Shown here piece by piece: positions 4,755-64,000 of a stretch of DNA of 64,000 bases (position 1 is its first letter; the number at the start of each line of letters is the position of its first letter). Under the pieces are notes generated by a model, which worked only from the letters and a program-made list of their open reading frames with translations, was not told the origin of the DNA and did not search any database. A program made the translations under genes and the position numbers. The DNA is taken from the NCBI GenBank assembly GCA_034933205.1, contig JAYFNY010000052.1:1391-65390 (forward strand), given 5' to 3'. This DNA is from Eubacteriales bacterium (GTDB lineage: Bacteria; Bacillota; Clostridia; Christensenellales; CAG-138).

Positions 4755-4943
4755 GCGTTCGCTACTCTGTCTTCCCTGTTATTTTGTATAGTATACCATA
4801 AGAATACGTTTCTGTATATATATTATAGAAAAGAAGTGGTACTATCCGCTTATTCTATTGAGATTTTACTCAGTTTTCAAGCACGTTCGCCTGCTTTCGG
4901 CATGTGTCTGCCAGTTCGCGGAAAAATAGTCCCTCCCCATACG

Positions 4944-4975
4944 AAAACCGGACGCAAATTCAAATCTGCGTCCGG
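4944..4975 (-). terminator. Rho-independent terminator after the DUF4956 gene
   Basis: 9-bp stem ccggacgca / tgcgtccgg (4948-4956 and 4967-4975). On the minus strand it is followed by TTTT. Confidence 0.7.
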
Positions 4976-20874: not shown

Positions 20875-20980
20875 GACGCTTCCCTCCTTTCAAAAAACTG
20901 CCCGCCGGACGAATCCGCGGGCATAATCGCAGGCAATCGTAATGCAGTTTGTATAGTATAGCAGGATCCTGCAAGGAAAA

Positions 20981-32697: not shown

Positions 32698-33882
32698 TTA
32701 CGCCGCCTTCTGGGTAAGTTCGAACTGTGTTTTCTGATTGCAAACAACAATGGACGCATACAACGCGGCAAGGCAAACCAATAAATAGAACGGTAAAAAG
32801 GAAAACCCAAAGCGCTGCCCCGCCCAACCGACCAACGGCGGCATCAAGGTGCTGCCCACGTAAGCCGCGGCCATCTGCAGCCCGATCACCGCCTGGGAAT
32901 ACACCGCGCCAAAACGACGCGGAGTGATGTGGATCAAATTCGGAAACACCGGAGCGCACCCGACGCCAAAGAGCATCAGTCCCGCCAGCAGCATCCCATC
33001 CGGCAAAGGAAAGGCCAGGATGAGCGCGCCAAGCGCGGCAAGTACGATCCCCGCGTTGATCAGTATCTTCTCCCGCACTTTCACGGCAAGAAGACCGGAA
33101 ACCAGCCGCCCGCCCATGATACCGAAGAAGAACATGGAGCCCCAGCTGGCGGCGGCGCTTGGCTCCACGCCGCGCACATGCACAAAGTAGGTTGCCGCCC
33201 ATAACCCGACCGTCGTTTCGGCAGCGCAGTAAAAAAAGAACGAGAGAACCGCAAACATTACGCCGCGCCTTCGAATCGCCGTTCGATTGTCGATCTGCAT
33301 CGCCTGCTGTGTCGTATCCTGCAAAGCAGCGTGGGGAACTTTCTTCCAAATCGGCAAGGTAACCAGAAGGAAGGCCGCCAGCGAAAACTGAATCAGCGAT
33401 ACGGTGTGATACCCTCCGCGCCAATTTCCTCCCTGGCGCAGAAAATAAGCCATGATCAGCGGGCTGATTGTGGCTCCTACGCCCCAGAAGCAATGCAAAA
33501 AGCTCATGTGGCTCGCTTTATAATGCAAAGCAACGTAATTATTCAGCGAAGCGTCTATTGCTCCGGCGCCAAGTCCGAGCGGGATTGCCAGAAGCAGCAG
33601 AAACATAAAGTTACTGCTGTACGAAATCCCAAAAAGCGCGCTTGCCGTCAGCAGGACGCTCACCGCCGTAACCGTCCCCGTACCAAAGCGCCTTACGACA
33701 CGCACGGTCATCAGACTCGAAACCACAGTCCCCGCCGTAATAAACACGGAGACCAGCCCCGCGTAGGAAACAGGCGCTCCCAATTCGGCGTAAGCAACCG
33801 GCCAGGCTGCGCCCAGAAGGGAATCCGGAAGGCCCAGACTGATGAAAGCAAGATAGATTACAATCAATAAAAAAGTAGCCAT
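32698..33882 (-). CDS. MFS transporter
   Basis: 394 aa with 12 TM helices and an MFS-like loop motif (RVVRRFGTG). Divergent from a TetR-family gene. Confidence 0.85.
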   Translation of the reverse strand: MATFLLIVIYLAFISLGLPDSLLGAAWPVAYAELGAPVSYAGLVSVFITAGTVVSSLMTVRVVRRFGTGTVTAVSVLLTASALFGISYSSNFMFLLLLAIPLGLGAGAIDASLNNYVALHYKASHMSFLHCFWGVGATISPLIMAYFLRQGGNWRGGYHTVSLIQFSLAAFLLVTLPIWKKVPHAALQDTTQQAMQIDNRTAIRRRGVMFAVLSFFFYCAAETTVGLWAATYFVHVRGVEPSAAASWGSMFFFGIMGGRLVSGLLAVKVREKILINAGIVLAALGALILAFPLPDGMLLAGLMLFGVGCAPVFPNLIHITPRRFGAVYSQAVIGLQMAAAYVGSTLMPPLVGWAGQRFGFSFLPFYLLVCLAALYASIVVCNQKTQFELTQKAA

Positions 33883-35362: not shown

Positions 35363-35435
35363 CGTCCGTGTTCGTTCACAGAAATGTTTCCTCATCCGCA
35401 TGGCGCCCGGTTTCTTTACGCGTTATACTCATTTT

Positions 35436-36233
35436 ATGCAAAAAACAACCGCTCCCTCCGGCAACCCCGCTACGCGCGGGCAAAAGATCGCGGCCGCCGC
35501 ATCCATCGCGGTATTTTTAATCGTGCTTGCGTTACTTACCATTTTTGTTGGCGTTCCGCTCGTGAAAACGCTCGGCGACCCCGCAACGTTTCGCACGTGG
35601 GTTGACGCGCGCGGATTCTGGGGACGCGTGCTGTTCGTCGGCGTGATCATGCTGCAGGTCATCATTGCGTTTATTCCAGCCGAACCGCTGGAGATCGCAG
35701 CCGGATATGCGTTCGGAGCGGTATGGGGAACGCTCTTTGTCTGGATCGGTCTCGTGCTTGGAAGCACGGTCGTGTTTCTTTTTGTCAGAAAAATCGGAGT
35801 CAAAGCGGTCGAAGTATTCTTCCCTCGTGAAAAAATCGATTCCTTCAAATATCTTAAGAACGAAAAAGCACTCAATGCAACCGCATTCTTTCTTTTTCTG
35901 ATACCCGGCACACCAAAGGATTTGCTGACCTATCTTGCCGGACTGACCAAGATCCGGCTCCTTCCCTGGATCCTTTTAACAAGCGTCGCGCGGATCCCTT
36001 CCATTGTAACCTCCACGATTAGCGGCAATGCCCTTGGGCTCGAAAAGTACGGCCTTGCCATCCTTGTTTTTGCCGCCACCGCTCTGGTCTCCGGCGCGGG
36101 GATGTTACTTTACGCCCGCGCGCAGAAGAAACGTTCCTTCCGCGAAGCGGCAAAAGCGCTCTCGGAGCAACCTCTGGAGGAACGCCCAATCGAAACCGCG
36201 GAGAACACCGTTTCCCCCTCCGAACGGAACTGA
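35436..36233 (+). CDS. TVP38/TMEM64 (DedA-related) family membrane protein
   Basis: Start trimmed to MQKTT. Motifs IPAEPLEIAAGYAFG and LIPGTPKDLLTYLAGLT are typical of the family. Confidence 0.8.
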   Translation: MQKTTAPSGNPATRGQKIAAAASIAVFLIVLALLTIFVGVPLVKTLGDPATFRTWVDARGFWGRVLFVGVIMLQVIIAFIPAEPLEIAAGYAFGAVWGTLFVWIGLVLGSTVVFLFVRKIGVKAVEVFFPREKIDSFKYLKNEKALNATAFFLFLIPGTPKDLLTYLAGLTKIRLLPWILLTSVARIPSIVTSTISGNALGLEKYGLAILVFAATALVSGAGMLLYARAQKKRSFREAAKALSEQPLEERPIETAENTVSPSERN

Positions 36234-36504
36234 TCGGCGACAAACGTTCCTTCGCTGCTTTTCCCCCTTTCTCCTTTCCACATAGGCCATTGAACAAGTG
36301 AATTCGAAAAAGTGCAACCGTATTACTTCTTCTATTCCTTTTCGTTACGTTCCCTTCGTCTTTTTGCAGAACATTCGCTTGATCCGCGCAACCTGTTCTG
36401 CAGTGATTTTTCCGTATCGATGCACAATCGCCGCACAAACGAATTCTTTGCAAAACGCATTCGGTGAATAGTTATTCTAGTGCGTTTTTTGTATATTCAC
36501 CAAT

Positions 36505-36577
36505 CTATCCACACCATCCACATACTTATCCACCATGCGACCTTCGGATTCTGCTTGCTTTTTCAAAGTTGTCCACA
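36505..36577 (+). promoter_or_regulatory. DnaA-box cluster 1 (four co-oriented boxes)
   Basis: CTATCCACA (36505-36513), CCATCCACA (36514-36522), TTATCCACC (36526-36534) and TTGTCCACA (36569-36577), compared with the consensus TTATCCACA. They lie in a 631-bp lower-GC gap between convergent genes. Confidence 0.7.
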
Positions 36578-36790
36578 CTCTGCACGCTGAATACCCAGAC
36601 CTGACGGTGGAAAACTACGCATCGGTTACGCAATATGTTTCCTTTGGTATGCAAAAATGTCAAAACTGTGAAATTGCGTTTTTTGCAGGCCACTGTAGCA
36701 AAACAATCTTTTCATCGCGACCTTTTTCAAAGATGATCCCAATTTCAACCGAATTTTCCTTTCCTTTCCTGCAATCCTTTAAGGGATAGA

Positions 36791-36818
36791 AAACGGCGCC
36801 CTGCAATGGACGCCGTTT
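36791..36818 (-). terminator. Rho-independent terminator of tsaD
   Basis: Stem aaacggcg / cgccgttt. On the minus strand it is followed by TTTTCT. Confidence 0.6.
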
Positions 36819-36864
36819 CTCGTACCCGGTCTTTATGGCAAAAGGATCGATCCAATCGAACCCC

Positions 36865-37947
36865 TTATGCTTCGTTTTCAATGGAAAGATACGGCACGGC
36901 GTTGAGCGAAAGCGAGTCGGGCCGCCCGCACATCAGCTTGCCATACGCCGCGCTGCCAACCATAGCGGCATTATCCGTACAATACGCAAAATCCGGGCAG
37001 TAAAACGAAATGCCGGCTTGCCGGGCTCTCGTCTGTAAAGCGGTGCGCAAGGCTTTGTTTGCGGAAACCCCGCCCGCAAGCGCAAGCTTTTTCGACGCGT
37101 CTCCCTTTTGAAGCAATGCAGCGCGAATCGATTTCTCCGTCAGGATATCGACCACCGTTTTTTGAAAGGAAGCCGCAAGGTCTGCTTTTTCTATCGTTTC
37201 CCCCGCTTGTGCGGCGTTGTGCAGGCGGTTAACCACGGCGGTCTTGATTCCGGAAAAGCTGAAATCGAACCCTTCCCCCTCGTTGAACGCAGAGTGAAAG
37301 CGGTATTTTTCCGGATTTCCGGCAAGCGCAAGCTTCTCCAGATTCGGGCCGCCCGGATAAGACAACCCGAGCACGCGCGCCACCTTATCGAACGCTTCGC
37401 CAGCCGCATCGTCCCGTGTGTGTCCGACCAGACGATACCGGTCGTAGCCTTCCACAACGATAATATGGCTGTGTCCGCCGGACGCAACAAGGCAGGTAAA
37501 CGGCGGCTCCAGGTTGGGGTCACTCAGGTAATTCGCCGCAATATGCGAAGCGATATGGTTTACGCCGAGAAACGGAAGTCCCGAAGCATAGGCAAGTCCC
37601 TTCGCATAGCTCAGCCCAACCAGCAGAGCACCGACAAGTCCCGGCCCGTACGTAACCGCAACCGCGTCCAATTCGCCGATGGACAATCCCGCCTGCAGAA
37701 GCGCGGCGGAAACGACGGAACCGATCTTCTGCACATGACTGCGTGAAGCGATCTCCGGCACTACGCCGCCGTATGGCGTATGCAACGGGATCTGGGTATA
37801 AACAGAATTGGAAAGCACGCGCCGGCCGTTTTCCACTACAGCGGCGGCGGTTTCGTCGCAGGAGGTTTCGATTGCCAGAACTCGCGCCTGCTTGCTTTCC
37901 CGGATCCGGTCGAACCGAAGCTGCGCGAGCCGCTCATACTCAGTCAT
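36865..37947 (-). CDS. tsaD: tRNA N6-adenosine threonylcarbamoyltransferase TsaD (Gcp/Kae1)
   Basis: Start trimmed to MTEYERLAQL...VLAIETSCDETAAAV. Also GPGLVGALLVG and NHIASH. The 90-codon Arg-rich N-terminal extension of the tracked ORF overlaps the upstream gene and is rejected. Confidence 0.92.
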   Translation of the reverse strand: MTEYERLAQLRFDRIRESKQARVLAIETSCDETAAAVVENGRRVLSNSVYTQIPLHTPYGGVVPEIASRSHVQKIGSVVSAALLQAGLSIGELDAVAVTYGPGLVGALLVGLSYAKGLAYASGLPFLGVNHIASHIAANYLSDPNLEPPFTCLVASGGHSHIIVVEGYDRYRLVGHTRDDAAGEAFDKVARVLGLSYPGGPNLEKLALAGNPEKYRFHSAFNEGEGFDFSFSGIKTAVVNRLHNAAQAGETIEKADLAASFQKTVVDILTEKSIRAALLQKGDASKKLALAGGVSANKALRTALQTRARQAGISFYCPDFAYCTDNAAMVGSAAYGKLMCGRPDSLSLNAVPYLSIENEA

Positions 37948-39103
37948 CAAAAAACCCCGTATCGTCGTCAATATTGCTCTTTTTCTTTTTTCCCCTGGCC
38001 GCGCCGGACGAAGCCGACTTTCCGGCGCGTTCCTCGCGCGGCACATCCTCCCGGCGTGACGCCGGGGTTCGCTGCGGAACCGGTTCCTGTTCCGCTTCCT
38101 GCTGCGCAGCCAGTTTCGCTTGCTTTCTCTCGGCGCGCTTCGCTTCGCGAGCATCCTGTATCGCCGCCTCTTCGTCCACGCGCTTTGCTTCCCGCTTTTC
38201 CTCCTGTTTTCGCTCACGTTCAGCCTCGCGCTGCTCCGCTTCCGCCTGCGCGACCTTTTTCATCTTAATGGCGGTAACCTGCGCGCGCTTCTGCGCAAGA
38301 CGCTTTTCTTTCTCGGCCGCCGCTTTTGCATCCGCACGCGCTTTTTTCCGCAGCGCGACCGCATCGTCGTGCGCTTTTTGCCTTGCAAGCGCAATCGCGC
38401 GGCGGCGCTTGTGCCCCGCCGAAGTCAGAATCAACGCAAAAATGCTGATTACAATTAGAACCAGGACCACTGCGCCGGCATAGAGCGCCACCCTTGCGAT
38501 GATATCCGCGAAGATATCCTCCGGAAGCATATTGATCATGCGGCTTTGCGTTCCGTCAAAGAGCCAAAGGTCGTTCCAAAATAGCGCCTCGTGGAAAAAC
38601 GTCCAGAAATTTGAAAAATCCAGCGACGCCCAAGTCCCCAAAAATCCCGAAATCAGAAGCATCACGAACGCGCCGGAAAGGTATCCCTGGGCAAGATACT
38701 GAGGCGCCATACGAAAATGGACGACAGCCGCAAAAAGGTAAAGAATCAGCATGACCAGAACGCCGATATCACGGTAACTTGCGATGGTCATATAGATTTG
38801 TCGCACGTCGACCATGTGCTCCGCTTCCTGCGGATAGTCGAACATCTGAACCTTCTCGTTATTGACCGTGACCTCAACGTTGATATCGTCCGCGTCGCCT
38901 TCCATATAATCCACGAGACGGGTCATTGCAAGCACCAGGTCGGAGTTGCTGATCCCCATCTTCTGGCTGATGGCCAATTCGGTAAACTCGTTGGTGATAA
39001 ACGTTTCGTCGTTGATTACGAGGCCGATGGATGTAAACACCAGGACCAAGATCAGAATAATCGTGGCGATGGCCGCCATACCAACGGAGATGAATTTTCG
39101 CAT
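37940..39103 (-). CDS. TIGR01906/DUF1461-like integral membrane protein with a long Lys/Ala/Glu-rich C-terminal tail
   Basis: 387 aa. N-terminal TM helix, an extracellular domain, three more TM helices (FWTFFHEALFWNDLWLF motif), then about 150 aa of charged low-complexity sequence (AEKEKRLAQKRAQ...EAERERKQEEKREAKR). 8-nt overlap with tsaD. Confidence 0.7.
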   Translation of the reverse strand: MRKFISVGMAAIATIILILVLVFTSIGLVINDETFITNEFTELAISQKMGISNSDLVLAMTRLVDYMEGDADDINVEVTVNNEKVQMFDYPQEAEHMVDVRQIYMTIASYRDIGVLVMLILYLFAAVVHFRMAPQYLAQGYLSGAFVMLLISGFLGTWASLDFSNFWTFFHEALFWNDLWLFDGTQSRMINMLPEDIFADIIARVALYAGAVVLVLIVISIFALILTSAGHKRRRAIALARQKAHDDAVALRKKARADAKAAAEKEKRLAQKRAQVTAIKMKKVAQAEAEQREAERERKQEEKREAKRVDEEAAIQDAREAKRAERKQAKLAAQQEAEQEPVPQRTPASRREDVPREERAGKSASSGAARGKKKKSNIDDDTGFFDD

Positions 39104-52299: not shown

Positions 52300-52884
52300 T
52301 TAATGCTCGATTGTAAGGTCGTTCCTGTCCTTTTGAATGAAACTTCGCTCAAACAACTTGGAAATGCGTTTATACAAAAGAAACGTAATGAGCGAATTTC
52401 CCACAGTTTTGATGGCGTTGAACGGAATAATCGCCGTTGGAAGCAGCGTTAACACCGTTTCCTTGGGAACGCCAAAAAAGTGCACCGTAAATATCAGGTT
52501 CATGGGAACCATCATCAGCGTCTGAAGGACACAGCCGACCGCCATCCCGATCAGTGCGCCGACGCGTGTTCTTCTGCTGCGATAGATCAGCCCGGCAGCA
52601 ATCACATAGGAGCCGGTCGCGCAGAAATGCATCACCGCTCCAACCCAAAGGCTCTGCGGGGAAACCAGCAGCCATTGCAGCACGCTGACCGTAGCGGTTA
52701 ACGCCAGCCCCCACCATGGCCCATAGAGGAAGGTGCCAATCAGAATCGGCACATCCGCCATATCGTATTCCAGAAAACTCGCAGCGGGAAAAATCGGGAA
52801 ATGAATCGCATATACCAGAATGATGGAAAGCGCGGTCAGCATGCCGAGTTTAACAAGACGGTCCACATTGGTTCTGAATTTCAT
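52300..52884 (-). CDS. ribU: ECF-transporter S component, riboflavin-type (RibU-like)
   Basis: Start at MKFRTNVDRLVKLGMLTALSIILV. 194 aa with 5-6 TM helices. Preceded by an FMN riboswitch. Confidence 0.8.
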   Translation of the reverse strand: MKFRTNVDRLVKLGMLTALSIILVYAIHFPIFPAASFLEYDMADVPILIGTFLYGPWWGLALTATVSVLQWLLVSPQSLWVGAVMHFCATGSYVIAAGLIYRSRRTRVGALIGMAVGCVLQTLMMVPMNLIFTVHFFGVPKETVLTLLPTAIIPFNAIKTVGNSLITFLLYKRISKLFERSFIQKDRNDLTIEH

Positions 52885-52905
52885 AACAGGTTCTCCTTCC
52901 ATCTG

Positions 52906-52934: not shown

Positions 52935-52965
52935 CGCTTGCCATGTCGTTTATCAAAATGGCATA

Positions 52966-53125
52966 TCGCTTCTTCCATCCGGACTTCCTGCGAACGACCG
53001 GTTCGCAGCTTACCGTCGGCAACGGATTCTTACCGTTTCGACCGCCAATGCGGCTCGCGGGCTTATCGGCATGTCTGCCGCATCACCGCCGGTGGGGAAT
53101 TGCACCCCGCCCCGAAGCTGATTCT
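52966..53125 (-). promoter_or_regulatory. FMN riboswitch (RFN element) aptamer
   Basis: The minus strand reads CTTCGGGGCGGGGTGCAATTCCCCACCGGCGGT...AGCCCGCGAGCC...GGTCGAAACGG...GCCGACGGTAAGC...AGTCCGGATGGAAGAAG. This matches the conserved RFN core I recall from the B. subtilis ribD leader (CTTCGGGGCAGGGTGAAATTCCCGACCGGCGGT...AGCCCG...GCCGACAGT..AGTCTGGATGGGAGAAG). Confidence 0.85.
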
Positions 53126-53192
53126 TTTCTCATAGCGTTTTATCACTATGCGCGGCTATCGTAACACTCCGGCAGGATTCCTGCAAGCGTTT

Positions 53193-56100
53193 TTACGAAA
53201 TTTCCGGGACTTTTCCGGGCGAAACCGCCACAACCGAACGATAGCTGAACAATACGACAAGCCTCTTTTCAACTTTTACGCCGGTAATTGCTTCCAGCGC
53301 CAGCGCATAAAGATCCAATTGCACGGCGTGCCGGTCCGCCACCGCCTGGGCAGATTCCCCGGGTCGAATCCGATCCGTTTTATAATCCACAATCGTCCAC
53401 GCGCCGTTTTCAAGGAAGCACACGTCGATAACCCCCTGGAGCAAAACCGTTTCATCCGCAGGAATCTGGTAGAGCGCCTGCGCGCTGATCGGGTAGGAGA
53501 ACGGCAATTCGCGTTCAAGTCGCGCGGCAGACGACATCCGCCGGTAAAGATCTCCGTTTGTAAACCATGCGACGGCATCCCGGTCGACGGCGCGCTCCTG
53601 CTCCAGCGAAATACACCCGTTTTCCCGAAGATCGGATAAATAGGCATCGACGGCACCCCCCTCCATCGCGTGCCCCAGCGGCAGATACTGCATCGCAGCG
53701 TGCGTAGCCGTTCCGGTAAAAACAGCGCTCGTTTCCTCGCCGAGAAACGCCGGAACACGGAATTCCGGCGGCGCGTCTTCCGGTTTTCCAATTCTGCTTA
53801 CGGCGTCCTTTGCACGCAGCATCGCCGCCTGCACGTGAGCATACGTCCAGCTCAGTCTTTCATCAATCGCCGCCAGCACCACCGGGTCAAACGGCGGAAG
53901 ACGTTCTGGAATTTCCGGCTGCGATCCCGCAAGGAACGCCTCGCGTTCATGGATTTGCGTCTCCAGCGCCTTATGCGTACCCATAATCAGCCATTGAGCG
54001 GGACAGGAACTGCGCAACACCTGCCATACGAAAGGTTTCCGCGGTGCGAGCGCGTATTTTTCCCCGGGAGCATTCAGGCAGGCCGTTAGAATCAGTTTCC
54101 GTTTTGCACGCGTCATCGCGACATACAGAATTCGCATCTCCTCCGCCAGCTGCTCGCGACGGACTCTCTGCGAAAGAACAACGCGCGCAAGGGTATCCCG
54201 TTTCACCCGGTAATTCCCCTCATTGTCAATCACGCGAAGGGCGATTCCGAATCGGGCATGCAATTGGAGGCTGCTGTTGACGTCCGTCTGGTTGAACCTC
54301 TTTCCTAGCCCCGCAACAAATACGACGGGAAACTCCAGCCCCTTTGATTTATGAATCGTTAAAATGCGCACCACGTCTGCGGTCACGGTCTGTGCCGCAC
54401 CCACAGACGCGCTGTTTCTCGCCAGCTCGATATAACGAAGAAAATTCCACACGCCTCGTCTTCCGGACGACTCGTACGCATGCGCCTTTTCAAGCAAGGC
54501 GTTTAAATTCGCCTGTCGCTGTGCGCCGCCATAACCGGCACCCATTTCCTCATAAAATCCCGTCTCGTCCAGCAGTTTGCCTAAAAGCGCTTCCACAGTG
54601 TGAATCCAGCTTTCCGCGCGGTAACGATCCAGTTTCAGTAAAAAGCGATTTGCCCGCGATCCCAACGCATCGATTTTCGCTTCTGCACAAGCGGCGAACG
54701 CTTCAAAGAAAGAACCTTCCGGATGCAGCGCGCGGATATTTGCCAATTCTTCATAGGTAAACCCGCCGATGGACGAGCAGAGCACCGAAAGCAGCGCAAC
54801 ATCCTGCCTTCGATTGTCGATTATAGAAAGCAGATTCTTAAAGATCTGAACTTCGATCGCGTCAAAGTAACCGCCGCTGGACTGCGCATAGCAGGGAATC
54901 CCCTGTTGAGACAGCGTTTGCGATACGACTTGCGCATCCGTACCGGCACGCAGCAGCACTGCAAAATCCGCATATCGGTACGCGCGCGCTCCACCCGCAG
55001 ACGAATCAAAGCAGGTTTCGCCCTGCATTATTTCATGAATCCGATGGGCGATCAGCCGCGCCTCCACTTCAAGATCTGCCGCGTCTTCCAGTGGATCCTC
55101 CTCGGCATCACCCGCGTTTTCCTCTCGGTTACGACAGATCAGATGCAACTCTGCCGTTCCCTCCGGCTGATCGACGCCAGGCAATAGGCGTGCGCGTGCG
55201 TCATAGTCGATCCCGCCGGAAGCTTCGTTCAGAATCGCCTCAAACACTTCGTTGACCGCCGCCAGTACCTCTTTGGAGCTGCGAAAATTACTGGAAAGAT
55301 CGACGCGCGAACCCAGTTCGCCGGAAAAGGCGGAAAGCTTTTCCAGAAAAAGCCCCGGTTCCGCCTGCCGAAACCGGTAGATGGACTGTTTAACATCGCC
55401 CACAAAAAACAGATTGTCCCCGCGGCAGATTTGACCAAGAATCGCCTCCTGCACACGGTTGCTGTCCTGATATTCGTCCACGGCGATCCAGCGAAACTTT
55501 TCGCGATACTCCTTCGCGATCTCTTCCTGCCGCAGAGCCTCCAGCGTCAGATGCTCCAAATCGTCGTAATCCATAATATTGGACACGCGTTTCGCGTCGC
55601 GATAGGTCTGCTCGAACCGGCAAACGATCCTGGTCAGCGCACTGACTGCTTCGCCGGAACGGCGAAGCACATTCAGCGTTTCCTGCTTTTCACGGGCAAA
55701 TCGTTTCAACTGCTCTTTGACCAGGTCTTTTCCCGCCTGCCGAACGGCCTGCACCGGCTTTTTTTCCTCGTCCGCCGTTCCACGCGGAAACCGCATCACC
55801 GTGTATTCAATTCCCCTGAGTGCAGAACGATAAGAGTCGTAGTTCTTATGCAGCAGCAACGCCCGGTACCGCGAAAGATCGTCGTCCAACGCCGGAATGA
55901 CCGTCGCCCATTCAGGGGACAGCGAATCGCGCGCCGCAGTCAGCGGCTCCATCATGAGCGCGACCTCCTCCTGCGAAAAGGCCACTGCATCGTTTAAAAT
56001 TGCTTCGAGTGCAGCATCGTCCTCATACCGCCTCGCCGCAAGCGTCAGCCACCTTTCCGGGTCCGGCTCCGCGCGGGTATAACGGTAAGCCGCCATTACC

Positions 56101-56603
56101 GCATCCCAGACCGGTTGCTCTCCTCCGAACACGGAAAGCAAAACGCGGTAATCCGCATTTTCTTCGGTGGCAAGCATCGTTAAAAGCTCGTCCCGCACGG
56201 TCTCCATCAGAGCGGCGCTCTCCATTTCATCCGCCGTACGCGCGCGCGCCGGCAGGCCGACCGCGTGGTAATGCCGCCTGAGCACACGCGCGCAGAACGC
56301 GTGAATTGTGGAGATATAAGCGCCGTCGGCATTGCGCGCCTGCCTGCGTAAAAAACGAATCTGCGCCGGATTTTCCGCCTCCTCCGCAAGAACATTGAGC
56401 CGATTCGCTATCCGGCTTTTCATCTCCGCCGCGGCGGCACGCGTAAACGTCAGCACCAGCATTTCATCCATCGGCACGCCGCCCGCCACACGGGAAACAA
56501 TCCGCTCGGTTAAAACGGCGGTTTTACCGGCGCCTGCCGCGGCGGAAACGATTAAATTTCCTTCGGACGTGATCGCCGAAAGCTGTTCATCTGTCCAGCG
56601 CAT
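53193..56603 (-). CDS. addA: ATP-dependent helicase/nuclease AddA
   Basis: Start at MRWTDEQLSAI. UvrD-type Walker A AAAGAGKTAVL. C-terminal RecB-type nuclease motif (VIDVCF...IVDYKTD). Overlaps the addB 3' end by 17 nt. Confidence 0.93.
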   Translation of the reverse strand: MRWTDEQLSAITSEGNLIVSAAAGAGKTAVLTERIVSRVAGGVPMDEMLVLTFTRAAAAEMKSRIANRLNVLAEEAENPAQIRFLRRQARNADGAYISTIHAFCARVLRRHYHAVGLPARARTADEMESAALMETVRDELLTMLATEENADYRVLLSVFGGEQPVWDAVMAAYRYTRAEPDPERWLTLAARRYEDDAALEAILNDAVAFSQEEVALMMEPLTAARDSLSPEWATVIPALDDDLSRYRALLLHKNYDSYRSALRGIEYTVMRFPRGTADEEKKPVQAVRQAGKDLVKEQLKRFAREKQETLNVLRRSGEAVSALTRIVCRFEQTYRDAKRVSNIMDYDDLEHLTLEALRQEEIAKEYREKFRWIAVDEYQDSNRVQEAILGQICRGDNLFFVGDVKQSIYRFRQAEPGLFLEKLSAFSGELGSRVDLSSNFRSSKEVLAAVNEVFEAILNEASGGIDYDARARLLPGVDQPEGTAELHLICRNREENAGDAEEDPLEDAADLEVEARLIAHRIHEIMQGETCFDSSAGGARAYRYADFAVLLRAGTDAQVVSQTLSQQGIPCYAQSSGGYFDAIEVQIFKNLLSIIDNRRQDVALLSVLCSSIGGFTYEELANIRALHPEGSFFEAFAACAEAKIDALGSRANRFLLKLDRYRAESWIHTVEALLGKLLDETGFYEEMGAGYGGAQRQANLNALLEKAHAYESSGRRGVWNFLRYIELARNSASVGAAQTVTADVVRILTIHKSKGLEFPVVFVAGLGKRFNQTDVNSSLQLHARFGIALRVIDNEGNYRVKRDTLARVVLSQRVRREQLAEEMRILYVAMTRAKRKLILTACLNAPGEKYALAPRKPFVWQVLRSSCPAQWLIMGTHKALETQIHEREAFLAGSQPEIPERLPPFDPVVLAAIDERLSWTYAHVQAAMLRAKDAVSRIGKPEDAPPEFRVPAFLGEETSAVFTGTATHAAMQYLPLGHAMEGGAVDAYLSDLRENGCISLEQERAVDRDAVAWFTNGDLYRRMSSAARLERELPFSYPISAQALYQIPADETVLLQGVIDVCFLENGAWTIVDYKTDRIRPGESAQAVADRHAVQLDLYALALEAITGVKVEKRLVVLFSYRSVVAVSPGKVPEIS

Positions 56604-59600
56604 CGTGCTCTCCTTCGTTGAGCAAATCAAAAAACGCATCCTGTTTGACGGATTTCAGCAACCTTACCCGCGCGCCGGGTACCCGCGCGTCAAACCGGCA
56701 GATGCTGTTGTAATCGCAATAAACGCAGGCCTGTTTCCGCTTTTGACGCGCGGCGGGGGAAGCGGTCATCTCGCCTTCCAGCATACAAAAAAGCGTCTCC
56801 TCCGATTTCTTTTTTGCCGCTTCAATCAGCAGATCCATCTCCCTTTGCGTACAAACACTGCCGGAATACGTCTCTTCGCCAACCTTCCGAACGCCGCCCA
56901 GAATACCGGATATTCCACTGATCGCAAAATCGCTGGCCGAAATCACGTCCGGGTCGGAAAGCGTCAGGCCCTTAAGACGAAACGCATCCATTGCAGCCGA
57001 CTCGACATCCTCTTCCGTATCCGAAACAACCGGCTGAAGAATCGGCATGTAATAGAATCCTGCGCGCGTCTCGCTGCACTCCGCAGCCGCCAGAAGATAG
57101 AGCGGAAGCTGCAGCGTAAGGCCATTTAAAACCCCGGAGAAATCAAACTCTTTACCGCCTGTTTTGTAGTCGATAATCCGCGTCATTTCACGCCCGTTCA
57201 CAGCCGCGCGATCGATGCGGTCGATCACACCGCCAAGCAACGCTTCTTTGCCATCGGATAAAGCCAATCGGATCGGAGGAAACGGCGCTCCCTGTCCAAA
57301 CCGGACTTCCGTCAGCACCGGCGCAAACCTTCCGGAGCGCGCCTGATTCAAAATGGCCAGCGCGCTTTGATGTACGACCTCGATCAGGAGGAACACCGTA
57401 GCCCGCATTCGCTCGTTTTCAACAAGAATCCCATAATTATGATTTGCGAGCACGCCGGGCAGCAACTCGTTTAGCAGCGCGATTGCGTTTTCGTCCGTCA
57501 ATTGCCGCCAGTCCAGTCCACGCTCGTTTACCGTGCGAACAAACGCCTCCAGGGCCGCATGATAGAACGCCCCGAGATCCGCCGCTCGCTCGGTATATTC
57601 CTTTGTTTCCTCCGCGTGCAGACCGTAACGGACAAAATGCTGAAACGGGCAGCTGTTAAAGCTCTCCAGACGGCTGGCACTCATGGTAACCCGAGTCCCG
57701 TAGAGCTTCTTCGCCGCTTCACGCCCGATCGTCAACTGCTTGAACCTTGCCGTACTCTCCGCCAGCATGCGCCGCGTCAGCTCGCGCGTATCGTCCCGGC
57801 TTAGCAACCATTCCACCAGTGCGGGCAACCGCTCAGGACATACCTTCTCATCGCGAAACCGTCTCAGATCGCCGGCAACCAGCGTCAGCGCTTCCGCGAT
57901 ACAATCTGGTAGCGCATCCGTCGATTCGATATCCGTCTTCACGAGGCAAGTCGGGCAAATCTTGCGGAGCCGCTCCACAAGCGGAGAGGGCGAAAGTTCG
58001 CCGCTGCCATCCCCGTATGCATAACTGACATACAGATACTCGTCCGTTTTCGAAAAAGCCGTATACAGATCCAGACGATCGGAAGCTGTCATTTCGTCGG
58101 ACGTTCTGCGCAGATCCGCACCAAAAGAGCGCAAGCTCTGAATCTCCGCATCGTCGATTAGTCCATCGTTTTGCTGCGGACGGGGAAGAACCCCTTCGTT
58201 TGCACCGATCACAAACAGCGCGCGCACACGACGGCTGCGGGTCCGAACCGCATCTCCCACGAGCCCCTGATCCGCCGTGCCCGGCACAACGCCGACACTG
58301 CAACCGCTTAGTCCCTCTTCCAGCAACCCGACAAAGCCCTTTTTCCCCACATTGAGGGACCCTAAGATTTCATCCAGCTGATCCAGCAACTCTACCAGAT
58401 AGTTCCAGACCTGCGCGTGTTCCTGCGCTTCCGGCAGGCGCCCCTCCCGCGTCAGACGCTCCGCTTTTTCCTCCAGTAGACGCTGAAGATCAATCTCCTT
58501 CAGAAACAAATAGAGTACACGAACCTGCTCGGAGACCGTTGCGCGCGCAAGCCCTTTTGACAGCGTCTCCAGAGCGGGAACGATTGCGCCTCGCGCCCGT
58601 TCCGCCCCCTCCTCCGACTCCGCACGAGTCAGAGGTTTGAGCAATGCGCTCCCGCGTAACCCGGTGCGGCGCAGATATAAATCAAGCGACTCCGCATCCG
58701 AATCCTCGCAGGGTGCAAAGCCGCATTTAAAGTACGTTTGAAAATCGGCCGTTCCATAGCCGAGCGCGGCAAAACGTACCGCCCCCAGAACCCCGTCCAC
58801 CGCGGCATGTCCCGTTAGCGGGCGTTTCTGATCCAGAAACACAGGAATTCCACGCCGCGCGCACGCACGCTGAATCAAGTTGGAATAGGCTTCCAGATCC
58901 GAAACAATCACCGCCATGTCGCGATAACGAACGCCGCCTCGCGCCAGTTCCAGGATTGCCTCCGCAAGGGACTCCGCTTCCGCACGGCGGTCACTCGCGC
59001 CAAAAATCGTCAGTTTTGATGCGTCGCTGCGGTATTCCTCCGCAGGATATGCAAAGAGGTTCCGCTCGATATGCCGCATCAGCGGCTCGCCCGCGCTCGA
59101 TTGCTCGCAAAGCCGGACTTCCTGTACGGCAGCGCCCGCGCGCTCGGCAACCGTGTTCAGCAAAGCGAGCACCTCCCGCTCCGGCTCGAACAAGTCGTCA
59201 TCCGCACGCCGCACACAATCCACGCGCAGAGAAATCGTTACTTCCGGGCAGCAGAGCAGCATCTGTTCCACCATACCGAGCACTTGCCGGTTCGGGTAAT
59301 CCAGCCCGTCGATATAAACCGGCAATCCAGCGACAAACGAAGCCGGCAGCAAGCGGGACGCCTCGTTCACCGCATCGTCCAGACTGATATACCGCTGTTC
59401 CAGATAGGCTTCCGTCTCCCGATAAAGTACGGCTAAGTCCGAAAGCTTGTCCGTGATCGGCGCGTCGGCCGGCAGGCGGATAATCAGCCCATCCAGTGCA
59501 TCCGGCGTTAACCCGGCATGCTTGAAGTCATGAAAAAAGGTCTCCGCCTCCTCAACAAACCCGGGCTGGCCGGCGGCAAGTGAAAAGACCTTGAGCGCAT

Positions 59601-59901
59601 CCTTCTTTCGATCGATCGCGCGGCGAATGACCATTCGATATCCCTGCTCCGAGAGAAACGGACGCGTTTGCCCTCCAAAGGACAGCAAGCGCTGCGCCAA
59701 ACGATCAAAACTGAACACCTGAACGCCGATCAGCCCGCCCAGCGCTTCCGCTAAGAGGCGCTCCGCCTCATAGGTGTATTGCTCCGGCACGATCAAAACC
59801 GCGCGCTCGCCAGATCGCTGCTTGTTTCGCAGTTCCTCGACAATCCGCGGTGTTTTCCCCGTTCCGGCGCGGCCGAGCAGAAGGGTGAGCAACGCGCTCA
59901 T
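56587..59901 (-). CDS. addB: ATP-dependent helicase/deoxyribonuclease AddB
   Basis: 1104 aa. N-terminal GRAGTGKT, C-terminal nuclease IIDYKTG, and a Cys cluster CVYCDYNSIC (Fe-S staple). Confidence 0.92.
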   Translation of the reverse strand: MSALLTLLLGRAGTGKTPRIVEELRNKQRSGERAVLIVPEQYTYEAERLLAEALGGLIGVQVFSFDRLAQRLLSFGGQTRPFLSEQGYRMVIRRAIDRKKDALKVFSLAAGQPGFVEEAETFFHDFKHAGLTPDALDGLIIRLPADAPITDKLSDLAVLYRETEAYLEQRYISLDDAVNEASRLLPASFVAGLPVYIDGLDYPNRQVLGMVEQMLLCCPEVTISLRVDCVRRADDDLFEPEREVLALLNTVAERAGAAVQEVRLCEQSSAGEPLMRHIERNLFAYPAEEYRSDASKLTIFGASDRRAEAESLAEAILELARGGVRYRDMAVIVSDLEAYSNLIQRACARRGIPVFLDQKRPLTGHAAVDGVLGAVRFAALGYGTADFQTYFKCGFAPCEDSDAESLDLYLRRTGLRGSALLKPLTRAESEEGAERARGAIVPALETLSKGLARATVSEQVRVLYLFLKEIDLQRLLEEKAERLTREGRLPEAQEHAQVWNYLVELLDQLDEILGSLNVGKKGFVGLLEEGLSGCSVGVVPGTADQGLVGDAVRTRSRRVRALFVIGANEGVLPRPQQNDGLIDDAEIQSLRSFGADLRRTSDEMTASDRLDLYTAFSKTDEYLYVSYAYGDGSGELSPSPLVERLRKICPTCLVKTDIESTDALPDCIAEALTLVAGDLRRFRDEKVCPERLPALVEWLLSRDDTRELTRRMLAESTARFKQLTIGREAAKKLYGTRVTMSASRLESFNSCPFQHFVRYGLHAEETKEYTERAADLGAFYHAALEAFVRTVNERGLDWRQLTDENAIALLNELLPGVLANHNYGILVENERMRATVFLLIEVVHQSALAILNQARSGRFAPVLTEVRFGQGAPFPPIRLALSDGKEALLGGVIDRIDRAAVNGREMTRIIDYKTGGKEFDFSGVLNGLTLQLPLYLLAAAECSETRAGFYYMPILQPVVSDTEEDVESAAMDAFRLKGLTLSDPDVISASDFAISGISGILGGVRKVGEETYSGSVCTQREMDLLIEAAKKKSEETLFCMLEGEMTASPAARQKRKQACVYCDYNSICRFDARVPGARVRLLKSVKQDAFFDLLNEGEHDALDR

Positions 59902-60422
59902 TTTAAAATCTCCCGGTGCAATTGCGTATATTTCATTTGTCCGTTCTCGCTGCGGCTTTCGTAAAGCACGATCGCGTTTGCCATAAACGCAGCTTTCTGC
60001 GGCGGCAATTCAAATTCTTCGTCGCCCTCTATCTTTCTGCCGAGTGTGATATGCGGCGAAAGTTTCCCTCGGTTTTTGGAAAAGCCTCGCTCCCATAGCG
60101 CGGACTCCAACGTTTCGTAAAGCCGGTCGAGCTCCCCGCCTTCGCAGGAAACGGAGACAAATCCGGTATGCGAACCGTCCGTCTTAAACGAACCGTATCC
60201 TCCCAGCCGCAGTACGAAAGGCCGAATATCCCGGATCGCTTCGCGCAGTGCATCCACGGCGTCCGCCAGTTCGTTTGTTTCGCCCAGAAAATGGAGCGTG
60301 ATATGGTAGTTTTCCCGCGGGACAAAGCGCCCGTTCGCGCCGGATTCCTCAAGCGCAACACGGGCGGACGATACCACGCGAAGAATATCCGGCGGCAACG
60401 GGATTCCAATAAATAAACGCAT
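59898..60422 (-). CDS. thpR: RNA 2',3'-cyclic phosphodiesterase (2H family, ThpR/LigT)
   Basis: 174 aa with two HxT motifs (HITLHFLG and HITLGR). Its stop overlaps the addB start as ATGA. Confidence 0.85.
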   Translation of the reverse strand: MRLFIGIPLPPDILRVVSSARVALEESGANGRFVPRENYHITLHFLGETNELADAVDALREAIRDIRPFVLRLGGYGSFKTDGSHTGFVSVSCEGGELDRLYETLESALWERGFSKNRGKLSPHITLGRKIEGDEEFELPPQKAAFMANAIVLYESRSENGQMKYTQLHREILK

Positions 60423-60709
60423 CTGCGCCTCCTAAGTAAAACGCACGTCAGGCGTTTTTCTTACCTACAGTATAGCGGGATCTCCACTTTTTCGCCAGAG
60501 CACGTATGGATCAATAGCAGAAACACGCCGATATCGTATCCCACGTTCTTGTCAATTCCATTCCGGATTTCCCTCAAATCAGCCATGCTTATGTTTCGAT
60601 CCCATCCATCGATACGGCAGGAAATCCTGCAAAACAAGCCGTTTCAATATCGTTTTACCATGTGTGAAAGATACTGCTTCCGAGTCGTTATTCAGAAATC
60701 CTGTATGAG

Positions 60710-60787
60710 TTATCCACAGTCCCTTATCCACATTGTCCACCATGTTATCCACATATCGTGGTTTTTTGAGTTTTTGGATGTGTATAA
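60710..60787 (+). promoter_or_regulatory. DnaA-box cluster 2 (three perfect and two near-consensus boxes) with an adjacent T-rich tract
   Basis: Perfect TTATCCACA at 60710-60718, 60724-60732 and 60745-60753. TTGTCCACC at 60733-60741. Inverted TTATACACA at 60779-60787. The tract 60761-60800 is 72% A+T and contains no C. Confidence 0.8.
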
Positions 60788-61040
60788 GTTTTGTTTTTGG
60801 GCTTCCGACTGTGAATATGCCCTCGAATCATACGTTCTGTAAAAAATATTCTGCAGATTCGAAATACCACACAGGGTGACACAATCCTTTTTTTCTCCTG
60901 CAATCCAGTTTTTTGAAAGATGCATCGAGCAATTCCAACGAAGCGGAGCGCGAGCAGAGATCGATCTAAATATAGAAATTTGGCAGCAATACAAAACCAT
61001 AGAATCATTCAAGTTCCAGAACCGGAGCAAATAGAGGTCG

Positions 61041-61078
61041 GCCTCAAAACAAAAAAAGTTTTGCAGTCGTGCAAAACT
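61041..61078 (-). terminator. Rho-independent terminator of murA
   Basis: 9-bp perfect stem agttttgca / tgcaaaact with loop gtcg. On the minus strand it is followed by TTTTTTTGTTTTG. Confidence 0.85.
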
Positions 61079-61132
61079 ATCGGGCCGTTCATTTCCTAAA
61101 ACTAAAACTAATCGCGCGTCGCGGTTTTTCGG

Positions 61133-62416
61133 CTACTTTTCGCGCCGTACGATCTCCGCGCCAAGGCCGGATAATTTACTCTCCAAATACTCATACCCGC
61201 GATCGATATACTGGATGTTGTGCACGTTCGTCGTTCCGCCGGCCGCAAGCCCCGCAACGATAAGCGACGCGCCCGCGCGCAAGTCGGACGCATAAATATC
61301 CGCGCCATGAAGCGCGTTGATGCCCTTCAGCTTTGCGGTATTATTATCCTTCATGCTGATGGAGGCGCCCATGCGGCGCAGCTCGCGAACATGGTTGAAA
61401 CGGTTCTCAAAGATCGTTTCGTTAATCGTCGATATCCCGTTCGCCGCACAGAGATACGCCATGATCGGCTGTTGCAGGTCGGTAGGAAATCCCGGATACG
61501 GCAGGGTTTTCACATTGATCGCGCGGGGACGTTCGTTCATTACGACGCGCAGATAAAAGTCCCGCCCGTCGTCGCCCTCGATCACGCGAGCACCGCTTTC
61601 CATCAGTTTGGCGGAGATGGCTTCCATATGTGTCGGAATCACGTTCTTAATCACAACGTCGCCCATCGTTGCTGCGGCGGCAATCATAAACGTTCCTGTT
61701 TCGATCTGATCCGGAATGATGGCATATCCACAGCCGTGCAGTTTGGGTTTTCCCGTTACGCGAATCACGTCCGTACCGGCTCCCTTGACCGTTGCACCCA
61801 TCATATTCAGAAAATTCGCAACGTCGACCACATGCGGTTCCTTCGCGACGTTGCTCATCACCGTAACGCCTTCGGCCATGCTTGCTGCAAGCATCACGTT
61901 GATGGTTGCCCCTACGCTGACTACGTCGAAATAAACTTCTGCCCCAACCAGCTTTTTTGCACGCGCACGGACGATATTCTTATCGCAATCCAGTTCGACT
62001 TCCGCGCCAAGCGCCCGCATGCCCTTGATATGCTGATCAATGGGACGCGCACCGATGACGCAGCCGCCCGGTAAAGCAAGCTCCACTTCGCCGAAGCGGG
62101 CAAGCAGAGAACCCAGCAAATAATAGGAGGCACGCATGCTGCAAACCGCCTCGCTCAGCGCCTTGGTCGTCTTGAGCGTACGCGAATCGATTCGCATGCA
62201 ATCGCCGTCCGTATAATCAACGCTAACGCCCAGCTCCTCTAAAATCTCTTTGAGGCACTGGACGTCCTGAATATGCGGCAAATTCTCAAGCACGCACGTT
62301 TCGCCTGCCAGAACCGCCGCAGGTATGATGGCGACCGCAGCGTTTTTTGCACCGCTGATGGTAACGGTTCCTTCGAGCCGCTTTCCGCCTTTGATTTCGT
62401 ACCATTCTTTCTGCAT
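61133..62416 (-). CDS. murA: UDP-N-acetylglucosamine 1-carboxyvinyltransferase
   Basis: 427 aa. N-terminus GGKRLEGTVTISGAKNAAVAIIPA and the catalytic-Cys loop LPGGCVIGARPIDQH. Confidence 0.95.
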   Translation of the reverse strand: MQKEWYEIKGGKRLEGTVTISGAKNAAVAIIPAAVLAGETCVLENLPHIQDVQCLKEILEELGVSVDYTDGDCMRIDSRTLKTTKALSEAVCSMRASYYLLGSLLARFGEVELALPGGCVIGARPIDQHIKGMRALGAEVELDCDKNIVRARAKKLVGAEVYFDVVSVGATINVMLAASMAEGVTVMSNVAKEPHVVDVANFLNMMGATVKGAGTDVIRVTGKPKLHGCGYAIIPDQIETGTFMIAAAATMGDVVIKNVIPTHMEAISAKLMESGARVIEGDDGRDFYLRVVMNERPRAINVKTLPYPGFPTDLQQPIMAYLCAANGISTINETIFENRFNHVRELRRMGASISMKDNNTAKLKGINALHGADIYASDLRAGASLIVAGLAAGGTTNVHNIQYIDRGYEYLESKLSGLGAEIVRREK

Positions 62417-62798
62417 ACCACTGCTAGTCTACCGAAATCATCCTCATAAGTCAAGCGCGACGGAAATCTGTACCCGTTTCGCTGCCGCCGCAGAGGACTC
62501 TTGTTTTTATTCGTCTGTACTCGTTTTATTCAGTTTTGTTCGCACGCTCTAAACGAAACGTCTTCCTACGCTCTTCTTCCTGCGTGCAGTGCATCGAGAT
62601 GAATCCTTCACAAATCTTCCTACTGACACGAATGTTCGAATTGTCGTTTTTATCGAATCGTTCTGAAAACCGGTGCAAATCCCGTAATTCGAAGCAAACG
62701 GTTGTTTTTCCCCCGATCCCATATTATGCAATACCATACTGCGAAGACTTCATTTCAAATATATTTTTTATTCTGCCGTAAATATGATTAGGAATGAA

Positions 62799-62827
62799 TT
62801 GACAAGCTGCGCACCGCATGCTAAAGT
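62799..62827 (+). promoter_or_regulatory. Putative promoter of the carbamate kinase gene
   Basis: TTGACA (62799-62804), N17, TAAAGT (62822-62827). Inverted repeat GCTAAA-gtaaa-TTTAGC overlaps the -10. Confidence 0.5.
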
Positions 62828-62870
62828 AAATTTAGCATTTCTCTATTTTTTTCAGAACTCGGAGGAATCC

Positions 62871-63812
62871 ATGGAAAAACTTGTTATCGCCCTTGGCGGC
62901 AACGCGCTGCAGGAGGGTAATGGCCCCGCAACTGCCGAAGCGCAGCTGGAGGTTGTTGAAAAAACGTCCGTATTCATTGCGGATATCATTGAAAAAGGTT
63001 ACCAGGTGATCCTTGCGCATGGCAACGGACCGCAGGTCGGTCGCATCGTTTTGCAGAACGAGCATTCCGTCAGCGTTACGCCCGCAATGCCGTTTGACGT
63101 CTGCGGCGCAATGAGCCAAGGCATGATCGGCTATCACATGCAGCAGGGCTTGACCAAAGCTTTGCGTGCTCGCGGCAATCACACCGGCGCAGCAACGGTC
63201 GTTACCCAGGTTGTCGTCGATCAGAACGACAAAGCGTTTCAGAACCCTTCCAAACCCATCGGTCCGTTTTACAGCGAAGAAGAAGCAAAGAAGCTGCAGC
63301 GTGAAAAGGGCTATGCCGTCAAGGAAGATGCCGGCCGCGGCTGGCGCCGCGTCGTCGCCTCGCCCATTCCCGTTGAAATCGTCGAACTTCCCGAGGTGAA
63401 GTGTCTGATTAACGGCGGTTTTGTCGTGATCACCGTTGGTGGCGGCGGCATCCCCGTTATCCGTGATGAAAAAGGAAATCTGGTCGGAACGGCCGCAGTC
63501 ATCGACAAGGATCTGGCGAGCGAACGACTTGCTGAGGATCTGGATGCCGATGCGCTCTTAATTCTCACTGCGGTTGAGCAGGTTTGCCTGAATTACGGAA
63601 AGCCGAACGAAAAGCGGCTTTCGACGATCTCCGTTGCCGAAGCGGAACAGTATATCAGTGAAGGCCACTTTGCTCCCGGTTCCATGCTTCCCAAGATTCA
63701 AGCCGCCGTCCGGTTCGCCAACAGCAAATCCGGGCGTCGCGCGATCATCACTTCCCTCGATAAAGCCGTTGATGCGCTCAACGGAAAAGCGGGGACCGTG
63801 ATCCAGAAGTAA
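62871..63812 (+). CDS. arcC: Carbamate kinase
   Basis: Start at MEKLVIALGGNAL, preceded by GGAGG plus 5 nt. HGNGPQVG motif. Confidence 0.9.
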   Translation: MEKLVIALGGNALQEGNGPATAEAQLEVVEKTSVFIADIIEKGYQVILAHGNGPQVGRIVLQNEHSVSVTPAMPFDVCGAMSQGMIGYHMQQGLTKALRARGNHTGAATVVTQVVVDQNDKAFQNPSKPIGPFYSEEEAKKLQREKGYAVKEDAGRGWRRVVASPIPVEIVELPEVKCLINGGFVVITVGGGGIPVIRDEKGNLVGTAAVIDKDLASERLAEDLDADALLILTAVEQVCLNYGKPNEKRLSTISVAEAEQYISEGHFAPGSMLPKIQAAVRFANSKSGRRAIITSLDKAVDALNGKAGTVIQK

Positions 63813-63877
63813 CGGATTCCAACCATTCAAGGCAGCGGTTCCTTTTGTTTGAAAGAATCACTTTCTTTTGTTCTATC

Positions 63878-63920
63878 GGCAGAGAGCTTACTCAATTAAG
63901 AGTAAGCTCTCTGCCTTTAT
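63878..63920 (+). terminator. Rho-independent terminator of arcC
   Basis: 15-bp perfect stem ggcagagagcttact / agtaagctctctgcc, followed by TTTAT. Confidence 0.75.
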
Positions 63921-64000
63921 CAACCGAATGCGAAAGCGTACTTCTGACGCATGATCACGGCGTTAACCGATTCGGCCCACGGAAGAGGAACATTGCTTCC

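Follow-up and report, generated by a model that had tools for sequence, protein, structure and literature searches.

The window analysed here is a stretch of 64,000 nucleotides from contig JAYFNY010000052.1 of an uncultured Christensenellales-like clostridium (assembly GCA_034933205.1). It contains a cluster of DnaA boxes located in a gap between murA and the genes thpR, addB and addA. This gap (60423-61132) spans 710 bp and has a GC content of 42.7%, versus 54.5% window-wide. An earlier note on this DNA had described three perfect boxes in the same orientation, together with a TTGTCCACC, within 44 bp, and an inverted TTATACACA next to them. It proposed that they form either a replication origin unlinked to dnaA, or an origin-proximal DnaA-box cluster (DBC), or the control region of a thpR-addB-addA promoter. 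Our box scan reproduced the coordinates of these sites, which are listed below.

60710-60753, + strand: array of four head-to-tail DnaA boxes
60710-60718, 60724-60732 and 60745-60753, + strand: three perfect boxes, TTATCCACA
60733-60741, + strand: further box of the array, TTGTCCACC, which abuts the second perfect box
60779-60787, - strand: single opposed box, TTATACACA
60688-60696, + strand: weak fifth box on the strand of the array, TTATTCAGA, two mismatches

The start-to-start spacing of the boxes in the array is 14, 9 and 12 bp, and a 25-bp spacer, T-rich on the + strand and A-rich on the - strand, lies between the array and the opposed box. In several relatives the site equivalent to the weak fifth box reads TTATTCACA, with a single mismatch. 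The three perfect boxes are the only copies of TTATCCACA in the 64 kb, where 0.29 are expected, and none of 100 shuffled sequences reached three or more. Three perfect boxes, one box with one mismatch and two boxes with two mismatches are gathered within 100 bp, i.e. several near-consensus boxes are clustered outside oriC, as expected for a DBC. They sit 288-365 bp upstream of the thpR ATG. The tract 60761-60800, previously described as C-free and 72% A+T, indeed lacks C and has an A+T content that we recomputed as 72.5%.

Scanning species-representative genomes for MurA yielded 80 loci from Christensenellales-like Clostridia. The same cluster follows murA in 17 genus-level relatives, which comprise the 16 closest loci showing the gap, with MurA sequences 87-91% identical, and one metagenome locus (L087). 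In these genomes, it lies 210-350 bp after murA and 255-320 bp before thpR. Alignment of 16 genus-level sequences (alignment A1) delineated a conserved block of 286 bp that contains the boxes; a TTGCAGGA motif on the - strand marks either boundary (60896-60903 and 60625-60632). The share of the majority base along the gap was as follows.

60617-60903: conserved block, 0.80
60710-60753: box array, 0.93
60779-60787: inverted box, 1.00 (invariant in 16 of 16 sequences)
61132-60904: flank of the gap on the murA side, 0.39
60499-60616: variable stretch on the thpR side, 0.42

The flanks of the gap outside the block carry many insertions and deletions. The earlier note had made a role of DnaA conditional on the boxes being kept in relatives, and they are kept almost without change. 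The TTGCAGGA motif occurs seven times in the window, always on the - strand, for 1.75 expected copies; apart from the two that bound the block, the copies are found at 53179-53186, 36767-36774, 33317-33324, 23168-23175 and 20967-20974. Three of the seven are palindromic (GCAGGA, 0-2 nt, TCCTGC), and the motif also recurs behind spo0A in relatives. Readings of TTGCAGGA and of CTGGCA as sigma-H or sigma-54 elements were discarded, as the downstream elements, judged by eye, do not fit.

When the window was compared with 15 relatives, no open reading frame of the gap proved to be kept in place or in frame, in agreement with the former view that the gap holds no convincing one. A 57-aa reading frame recurs in eight relatives, but in the window it is either missing or shifted in frame, and it has no ribosome-binding site; it was considered as non-coding. 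Rfam gave no match to the gap, even at permissive E-values. A structured RNA was also rejected, since RNAalifold applied to both strands of the conserved block returned weak energies and no covariation, as was an integrated plasmid origin, the block being without match in a plasmid database.

The earlier note also stated that no dnaA lies nearby. This holds inside the 64-kb window but not beyond it. Among public contigs encoding the MurA of the window we found one, L081, that shares 8,532 bp with the window at 100% identity (positions 55469-64000) and extends a further 8,416 bp to the right of it. Its gene order is dnaA, dnaN, parA, parB, aspS, the carbamate kinase gene arcC (on the opposite strand), murA, the gap, thpR and addB. 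In window-equivalent coordinates, the two replication genes are placed as follows.

67535-68638: dnaN
69012-70322: dnaA

They lie 3.5-6.3 kb past the window end, and the identities of DnaA and DnaN were confirmed by NCBIfam in a relative (L007). The parA and parB genes are found directly downstream of dnaN (L081 5161-6809). The distance between the dnaA-dnaN region and the cluster is about 8 kb (7.9-9.5 kb) in the strain of the window, with parA, parB, aspS, arcC and murA in between, and the cluster is therefore proximal to the origin, as most B. subtilis DBCs are. In the genus-level relatives it stays 6-10 kb from the dnaA-dnaN spacer, even when the dnaA block is inverted (L011 and L014). The inversion of the dnaA-dnaN-parAB block relative to murA was seen in three relatives, these two and L015.

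The dnaA-dnaN spacer (L081 3406-3778) contains ten boxes with at most two mismatches, none of them perfect. We joined the window and the L081 extension into a 72.4-kb composite and searched it for DnaA-trio-like runs, defined as at least five consecutive CTN triplets. The sole run found, CTACTGCTGCTACTTCTG, is located in this spacer (L081 3606-3623) and is directly followed by an 80% A+T 30-mer; no other 30-mer in this spacer or in the murA-thpR gap is richer in A+T. In the published definition, a DnaA-trio is a 3'-[G/A]A[T/A]-5' repeat (n>3) that adjoins a DnaA box and precedes an AT-rich unwinding element, as is the case in oriC2 of both B. subtilis and C. difficile (PMC7561715). Four relatives have the same run in their dnaA-dnaN spacers. 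The murA-thpR gap has none, either in the window or in these relatives. The search for a trio and an unwinding element beside the boxes, which had been put forward as a check of the origin hypothesis, led to the dnaA-dnaN spacer instead.

The GC skew points to the same place. The cumulative G-C curve of the composite is lowest at L081 position 3321, where dnaA has its 3' end. Two 1-kb windows upstream of dnaA have a skew of -0.13 and -0.11; over dnaA itself the value is close to zero, and from dnaN on, the murA-thpR gap included, it ranges from +0.05 to +0.18. On either side of this gap it amounts to +0.09 to +0.13, and the sign switch that an origin at the gap should produce is absent. In L087, analysed over 10 kb on each side of dnaA, the cumulative minimum falls inside the dnaA-dnaN spacer. 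The skew of the window, read on its + strand, is negative throughout, as in a single replichore that proceeds leftward from an origin lying beyond the right end. In this lineage the dnaA-dnaN spacer, just past that end of the window, is the origin, and the proposal of an origin unlinked to dnaA has to be abandoned.

Upstream of dnaA, we surveyed 460-500 bp in the strain of the window (L081 1636-2094, window-equivalent ~70323-70781) and, likewise, in seven relatives. No box with at most one mismatch was found there in the strain of the window and in six of the seven relatives (L087, L002, L009, L010, L022 and L003). At this place upstream of dnaA, the origins of B. subtilis and C. difficile include an oriC1 rich in boxes, and in vitro melting of the C. 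difficile origin needed both regions (PMC7561715). The origin of the genus of the window looks monopartite, consisting of the dnaA-dnaN spacer only, unlike these bipartite origins.

In more distant relatives, the gene directly upstream of the cluster is spo0A, recognised by its Spo0A_C (Pfam) and receiver domains. In the first set of loci, all ten spo0A genes are followed by DnaA boxes 170-490 bp past the stop codon, with a constant layout: one box on the spo0A strand and, 27-50 bp further, a group of two to four boxes on the opposite strand. Seven further spo0A loci were retrieved by a protein search, and the cluster, counted as spo0A-linked when at least three boxes lie within 700 bp 3' of the gene, is present in three of them. 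In total 13 of the 17 loci carry it, with the same orientation pattern. Only eight clusters in 2.38 Mb of fetched DNA could not be classified. The gene that follows the cluster is not the same at all loci, and in many cases it is convergent; thpR, a cyclase gene, a zinc-uptake operon, a glycoside hydrolase gene and others were seen there.

In two of these relatives, L018 and L023, murA is followed in this order by spo0A, the cluster, thpR and addB, and the genus of the window shows the same order minus spo0A. Comparison with L018 and L023 revealed no remnant of spo0A in the gap of the window, and nucleotide similarity is confined to the boxes and one TTGCAGGA motif. No complete chromosome of the genus of the window appears to be represented among the best 120 Spo0A clusters, an indirect hint that this genus may lack spo0A altogether. 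Alignment of 16 deeply diverged sequences (alignment A2) defined a universal core made of the opposed box, the A-rich spacer and three tandem boxes with the consensus GTGGATAA, 4 nt, GTGGAnAA, 1 nt, GTGGAnAA. The window boxes at 60724-60753 are the three tandem boxes of this core, with positions that are invariant across the 16 sequences. The opposed box of distant relatives is TTATACACA, TTATCCACA or TTTTCCACA; it varies as a DnaA box does and not as a -10 element, and we rejected on this ground the reading of TGTGTATAAG as an antisense promoter with the inverted box as its -10. The cluster is an ancient element whose first place was directly 3' of spo0A. Its repeated placement behind this gene suggests that the initiator of replication and the regulator of sporulation are connected. 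Literature searches returned nothing relevant on DnaA boxes tied to spo0A or to Christensenellaceae. A motif of about 45 nt, GAAGCCCCGTCTCCTTGCAGGAATGCCCCAACCTCATAATCCG, is also conserved just 3' of spo0A at three otherwise diverged loci (L167 4793-4850, L168 ~4900-4960 and L173 ~4820-4880), of which L168 is devoid of DnaA boxes.

A second, weaker cluster is present in the window, about 32 kb from oriC, in the gap 36234-36864.

36505-36577, + strand: weaker DnaA-box cluster of four near-consensus boxes, CTATCCACA, CCATCCACA, TTATCCACC and TTGTCCACA
36865-38217, - strand: tsaD (gcp), whose 3' end faces the gap
35400-36233, + strand: convergent open reading frame, whose 3' end closes the gap on the other side

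This cluster is conserved in the genus-level chromosomes L175 and L176 and not in the more distant L177, and it accounts for two of the eight unclassified clusters mentioned above. According to the record ranges of OY776633.1, the origin, the murA-thpR cluster and the tsaD cluster are located there at ~264.1, ~257.9 and ~233.8 kb, respectively, a spacing about the same as in the window.

The genes that flank the murA-thpR gap were identified with NCBIfam models, in agreement with the first annotation. They are listed with the transcription signals predicted around the boxes.

61133-62416, - strand: murA, UDP-N-acetylglucosamine 1-carboxyvinyltransferase (NF009470, 576 bits, above the curated cut-off)
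59898-60422, - strand: thpR, RNA 2',3'-cyclic phosphodiesterase (TIGR02258, 107.6 bits, above the curated cut-off)
56587-59901, - strand: addB, helicase-nuclease (best match TIGR02773, 674 bits, below the 903.7-bit cut-off)
53193-56639, - strand: addA, helicase-nuclease (TIGR02785, 833 bits, above the cut-off)
61057-61078, - strand: intrinsic terminator of murA, a 9-bp stem followed by TTTTTTTG
60814-60843, - strand: candidate promoter P1, TTTACA-18 nt-CATATT, pointing through the boxes toward thpR (consensus scan and alignment A1)
60469-60498, - strand: candidate thpR-addBA promoter P2, with a -35-like CTGGCG (60493-60498), an 18-nt spacer and a -10 TATACT (60469-60474)

The thpR stop codon overlaps the addB start (59898-59901), and the thpR-addB pair is kept in all relatives, even in those where it is inverted and divergent from murA (L024-L044). 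A hairpin followed by a T-run, equivalent to the murA terminator, is also seen in relatives. P2, which is likely the promoter of the thpR-addBA operon, lies about 45 nt before the thpR ATG; its CTGG, 20 nt, TATACT pattern is invariant in the 16 sequences of A1, and its majority-base share is 0.74. It is separated from the boxes by 236-318 bp, including a non-conserved stretch. P1, a weaker candidate promoter, is located 27 bp upstream of the inverted box, and its -35 is not kept in 4 of 16 relatives. No terminator was predicted between the boxes and thpR. Right after addA, an FMN riboswitch (RF00050, 90.8 bits; 52963-53123, - strand) precedes the gene of an ECF-transporter S component (52300-52902).

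Of the three possibilities raised at the outset, an origin-proximal DBC is the one that the position of the cluster, the quality of its boxes and their strong conservation support. In B. subtilis, six DBCs are found outside oriC, mostly near it, with neighbour genes that differ among Bacillus species, and deletion of all six leads to early initiation (PMC3245932). They bind DnaA stably and together delay initiation (PMC3245932; PMC4447404), and some of them regulate their neighbours, namely sda, ywlC, yydA and dnaA (PMC3245932). By analogy, we consider it probable that the murA-thpR cluster is an origin-proximal DnaA sink that modulates initiation. The four head-to-tail boxes, three of them perfect, and the opposed box across the 25-bp bendable A-tract would bind a cooperative DnaA oligomer; DnaA would thereby be held away from oriC and the timing of initiation would be tuned, as is reported for the six B. 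subtilis DBCs and for datA of E. coli. The cluster may also affect transcription passing through it toward thpR-addBA. DnaA occupancy of the boxes, like any effect on transcription, is something that we infer from the sequence. The cluster is kept under selection in a lineage that has no spo0A at this position, and its present role is therefore independent of spo0A in cis.

Several observations weigh against a simple sink, whose titration step is proposed by analogy. About 100 bp on either side of the boxes are also conserved, including the two TTGCAGGA and two TGGTA motifs; this would not be expected if the site only bound DnaA, and other proteins or promoters are probably involved. The cluster is absent from 4 of the 17 spo0A loci. 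Finally, dnaA was not found in the fetched flanks of the spo0A-bearing relatives, L094 excepted, and in L023, L025, L067 and L069 at least one flank is free of it for more than 9-17 kb, so that proximity to oriC is established for the genus of the window and L094 only.

We weighed these readings against four others. DnaA bound to the cluster could act as an operator of thpR-addB-addA, either by blocking or modulating P1 transcripts or by acting at a distance on P2. The boxes are indeed upstream of thpR and on the path to it in the genus of the window, L018 and L023, with the promoter-like P1 just upstream on the thpR strand and a terminator-free path to the gene, and regulation of neighbours is documented for some of the B. 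subtilis DBCs. However, the cluster stays behind spo0A in L094, L025 and L017, where thpR lies elsewhere or on the other side; the next gene at most spo0A loci is convergent or unrelated; and in the L024-L044 group thpR-addB is not preceded by a strong box cluster. The distance and the non-conserved stretch that separate the boxes from the invariant P2, and the loss of the P1 -35 in a quarter of the relatives, speak in the same direction. Such a control is possible in this lineage, as the earlier note had proposed, but the cluster follows the 3' end of spo0A and its association with thpR is not conserved; as the main function it seems rather unlikely. It would be secondary to, and compatible with, a DBC. 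If true, it would link replication stress to double-strand-break repair. The idea that the cluster is itself an origin, sole or second, could draw on the three perfect boxes with their adjoining C-free tract, and on a dnaA-dnaN spacer that has no perfect box in this strain. It is nevertheless hardly tenable, given the full origin-like anatomy 8 kb away, the skew and trio results described above, the shared direction of the genes on either side of the gap, and the homologous clusters behind spo0A in relatives, several of them without dnaA in the fetched flanks.

The cluster might alternatively be a displaced counterpart of oriC1, brought to the unwinding region of the dnaA-dnaN spacer by DnaA-mediated looping and replacing the box cluster that is found directly upstream of dnaA in other Firmicutes. 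This would account for the box-poor region upstream of dnaA in a lineage whose only perfect boxes in 72 kb are those of the cluster, for the 6-10 kb maintained from oriC despite local rearrangements, and for the box-rich oriC1 of C. difficile and B. subtilis having no equivalent at the usual place. But 8 kb and five intervening genes are far beyond any described bipartite origin, the relative orientation is not kept since the dnaA block is inverted in L011 and L014, and distant relatives tie the cluster to spo0A, with no proximity to dnaA shown there. We regard this arrangement as quite improbable. Still less credit can be given to a relic, i.e. a spo0A-linked element once conveying a DnaA input on spo0A expression or function and deprived of any role since spo0A left the locus. 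The 13 loci with the cluster just 3' of spo0A and the lack of spo0A at this position in the lineage of the window are in keeping with it. On the other hand, the boxes of 17 species-level genomes show little or no variation following the disappearance of spo0A, whereas the neighbouring intergenic sequence has a majority-base share of only ~40% and many insertions and deletions; boxes kept while their flanks diverged indicate continuing selection, which makes a relic unlikely. A further scenario, which we hold to be doubtful, is that the cluster, with one box and three opposed boxes, is a DnaA-sensing module attached to spo0A that would couple replication status to this master regulator of sporulation, and that in the asporogenous-looking lineage of the window it survives as the main high-affinity DnaA site near an origin devoid of a box cluster upstream of dnaA, perhaps as a distant partner of this origin. 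The DnaA-controlled checkpoint gene of B. subtilis, sda, is not known in this branch of Clostridia.

The origin-proximal DBC thus remains our preferred explanation. These data remove a false lead, that of an origin unlinked to dnaA, and allow the origin of an uncultured lineage to be placed in its dnaA-dnaN spacer. DBCs have been studied almost only in B. subtilis; they are also present, and under selection, in distant uncultured Clostridia, where one of them occupies the same kind of site as in B. subtilis, behind tsaD/gcp. The murA-thpR cluster belongs to this class; its evolutionary tie to spo0A was unexpected, and a link between DnaA boxes and spo0A was not found described in the literature searched.

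Comparison with known DnaA-binding loci helps to define what is shared. Like datA of E. coli, the cluster is a group of high-affinity boxes near the origin, and datA is proposed to restrain re-initiation by binding DnaA; a difference is that datA depends on an IHF site and stimulates the hydrolysis of DnaA-bound ATP, and the two share no sequence homology. The core of E. coli DARS1 and DARS2, made of three boxes at a fixed close spacing, with box I opposite to boxes II and III, also has one box facing tandem boxes of opposite orientation. In clusters of the window type, an A-rich spacer puts 25-45 bp between the opposed box and the three to five boxes that face it, and the ADP-release function of the DARS is specific to the DnaA cycle of E. 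coli; the likeness seen here is one of orientation. With oriC1 and oriC2 of the Firmicutes B. subtilis and C. difficile (PMC7561715), the cluster has in common boxes beside an A+T-rich stretch. In contrast to these origins, it has neither DnaA-trio nor skew switch and is not beside dnaA and dnaN, the oriC2-type region being 8 kb away.

The closest parallel is with the B. subtilis DBCs, from which the present clusters differ in three respects. They belong to uncultured Christensenellales-like Clostridia, not to Bacillus. The murA-thpR cluster was ancestrally associated with the 3' end of spo0A, and such a location was found neither among the B. subtilis DBCs nor in the literature searched. With 5-6 boxes, this cluster has fewer than the majority of the B. 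subtilis regions, which comprise 4-12 sites (PMC4447404). In both cases, near-consensus boxes are grouped in intergenic regions outside but close to the origin, with neighbours that differ by lineage, and more than one cluster is found on the origin-proximal part of the chromosome. As in B. subtilis, one of the clusters of the window lies between the 3' ends of tsaD/gcp and of a convergent gene: the high-affinity DnaA region located there downstream of gcp and ydiF (the gcp-ydiF DBC) parallels the tsaD cluster, which supports the existence, in the lineage of the window, of a DBC system like that of B. subtilis.

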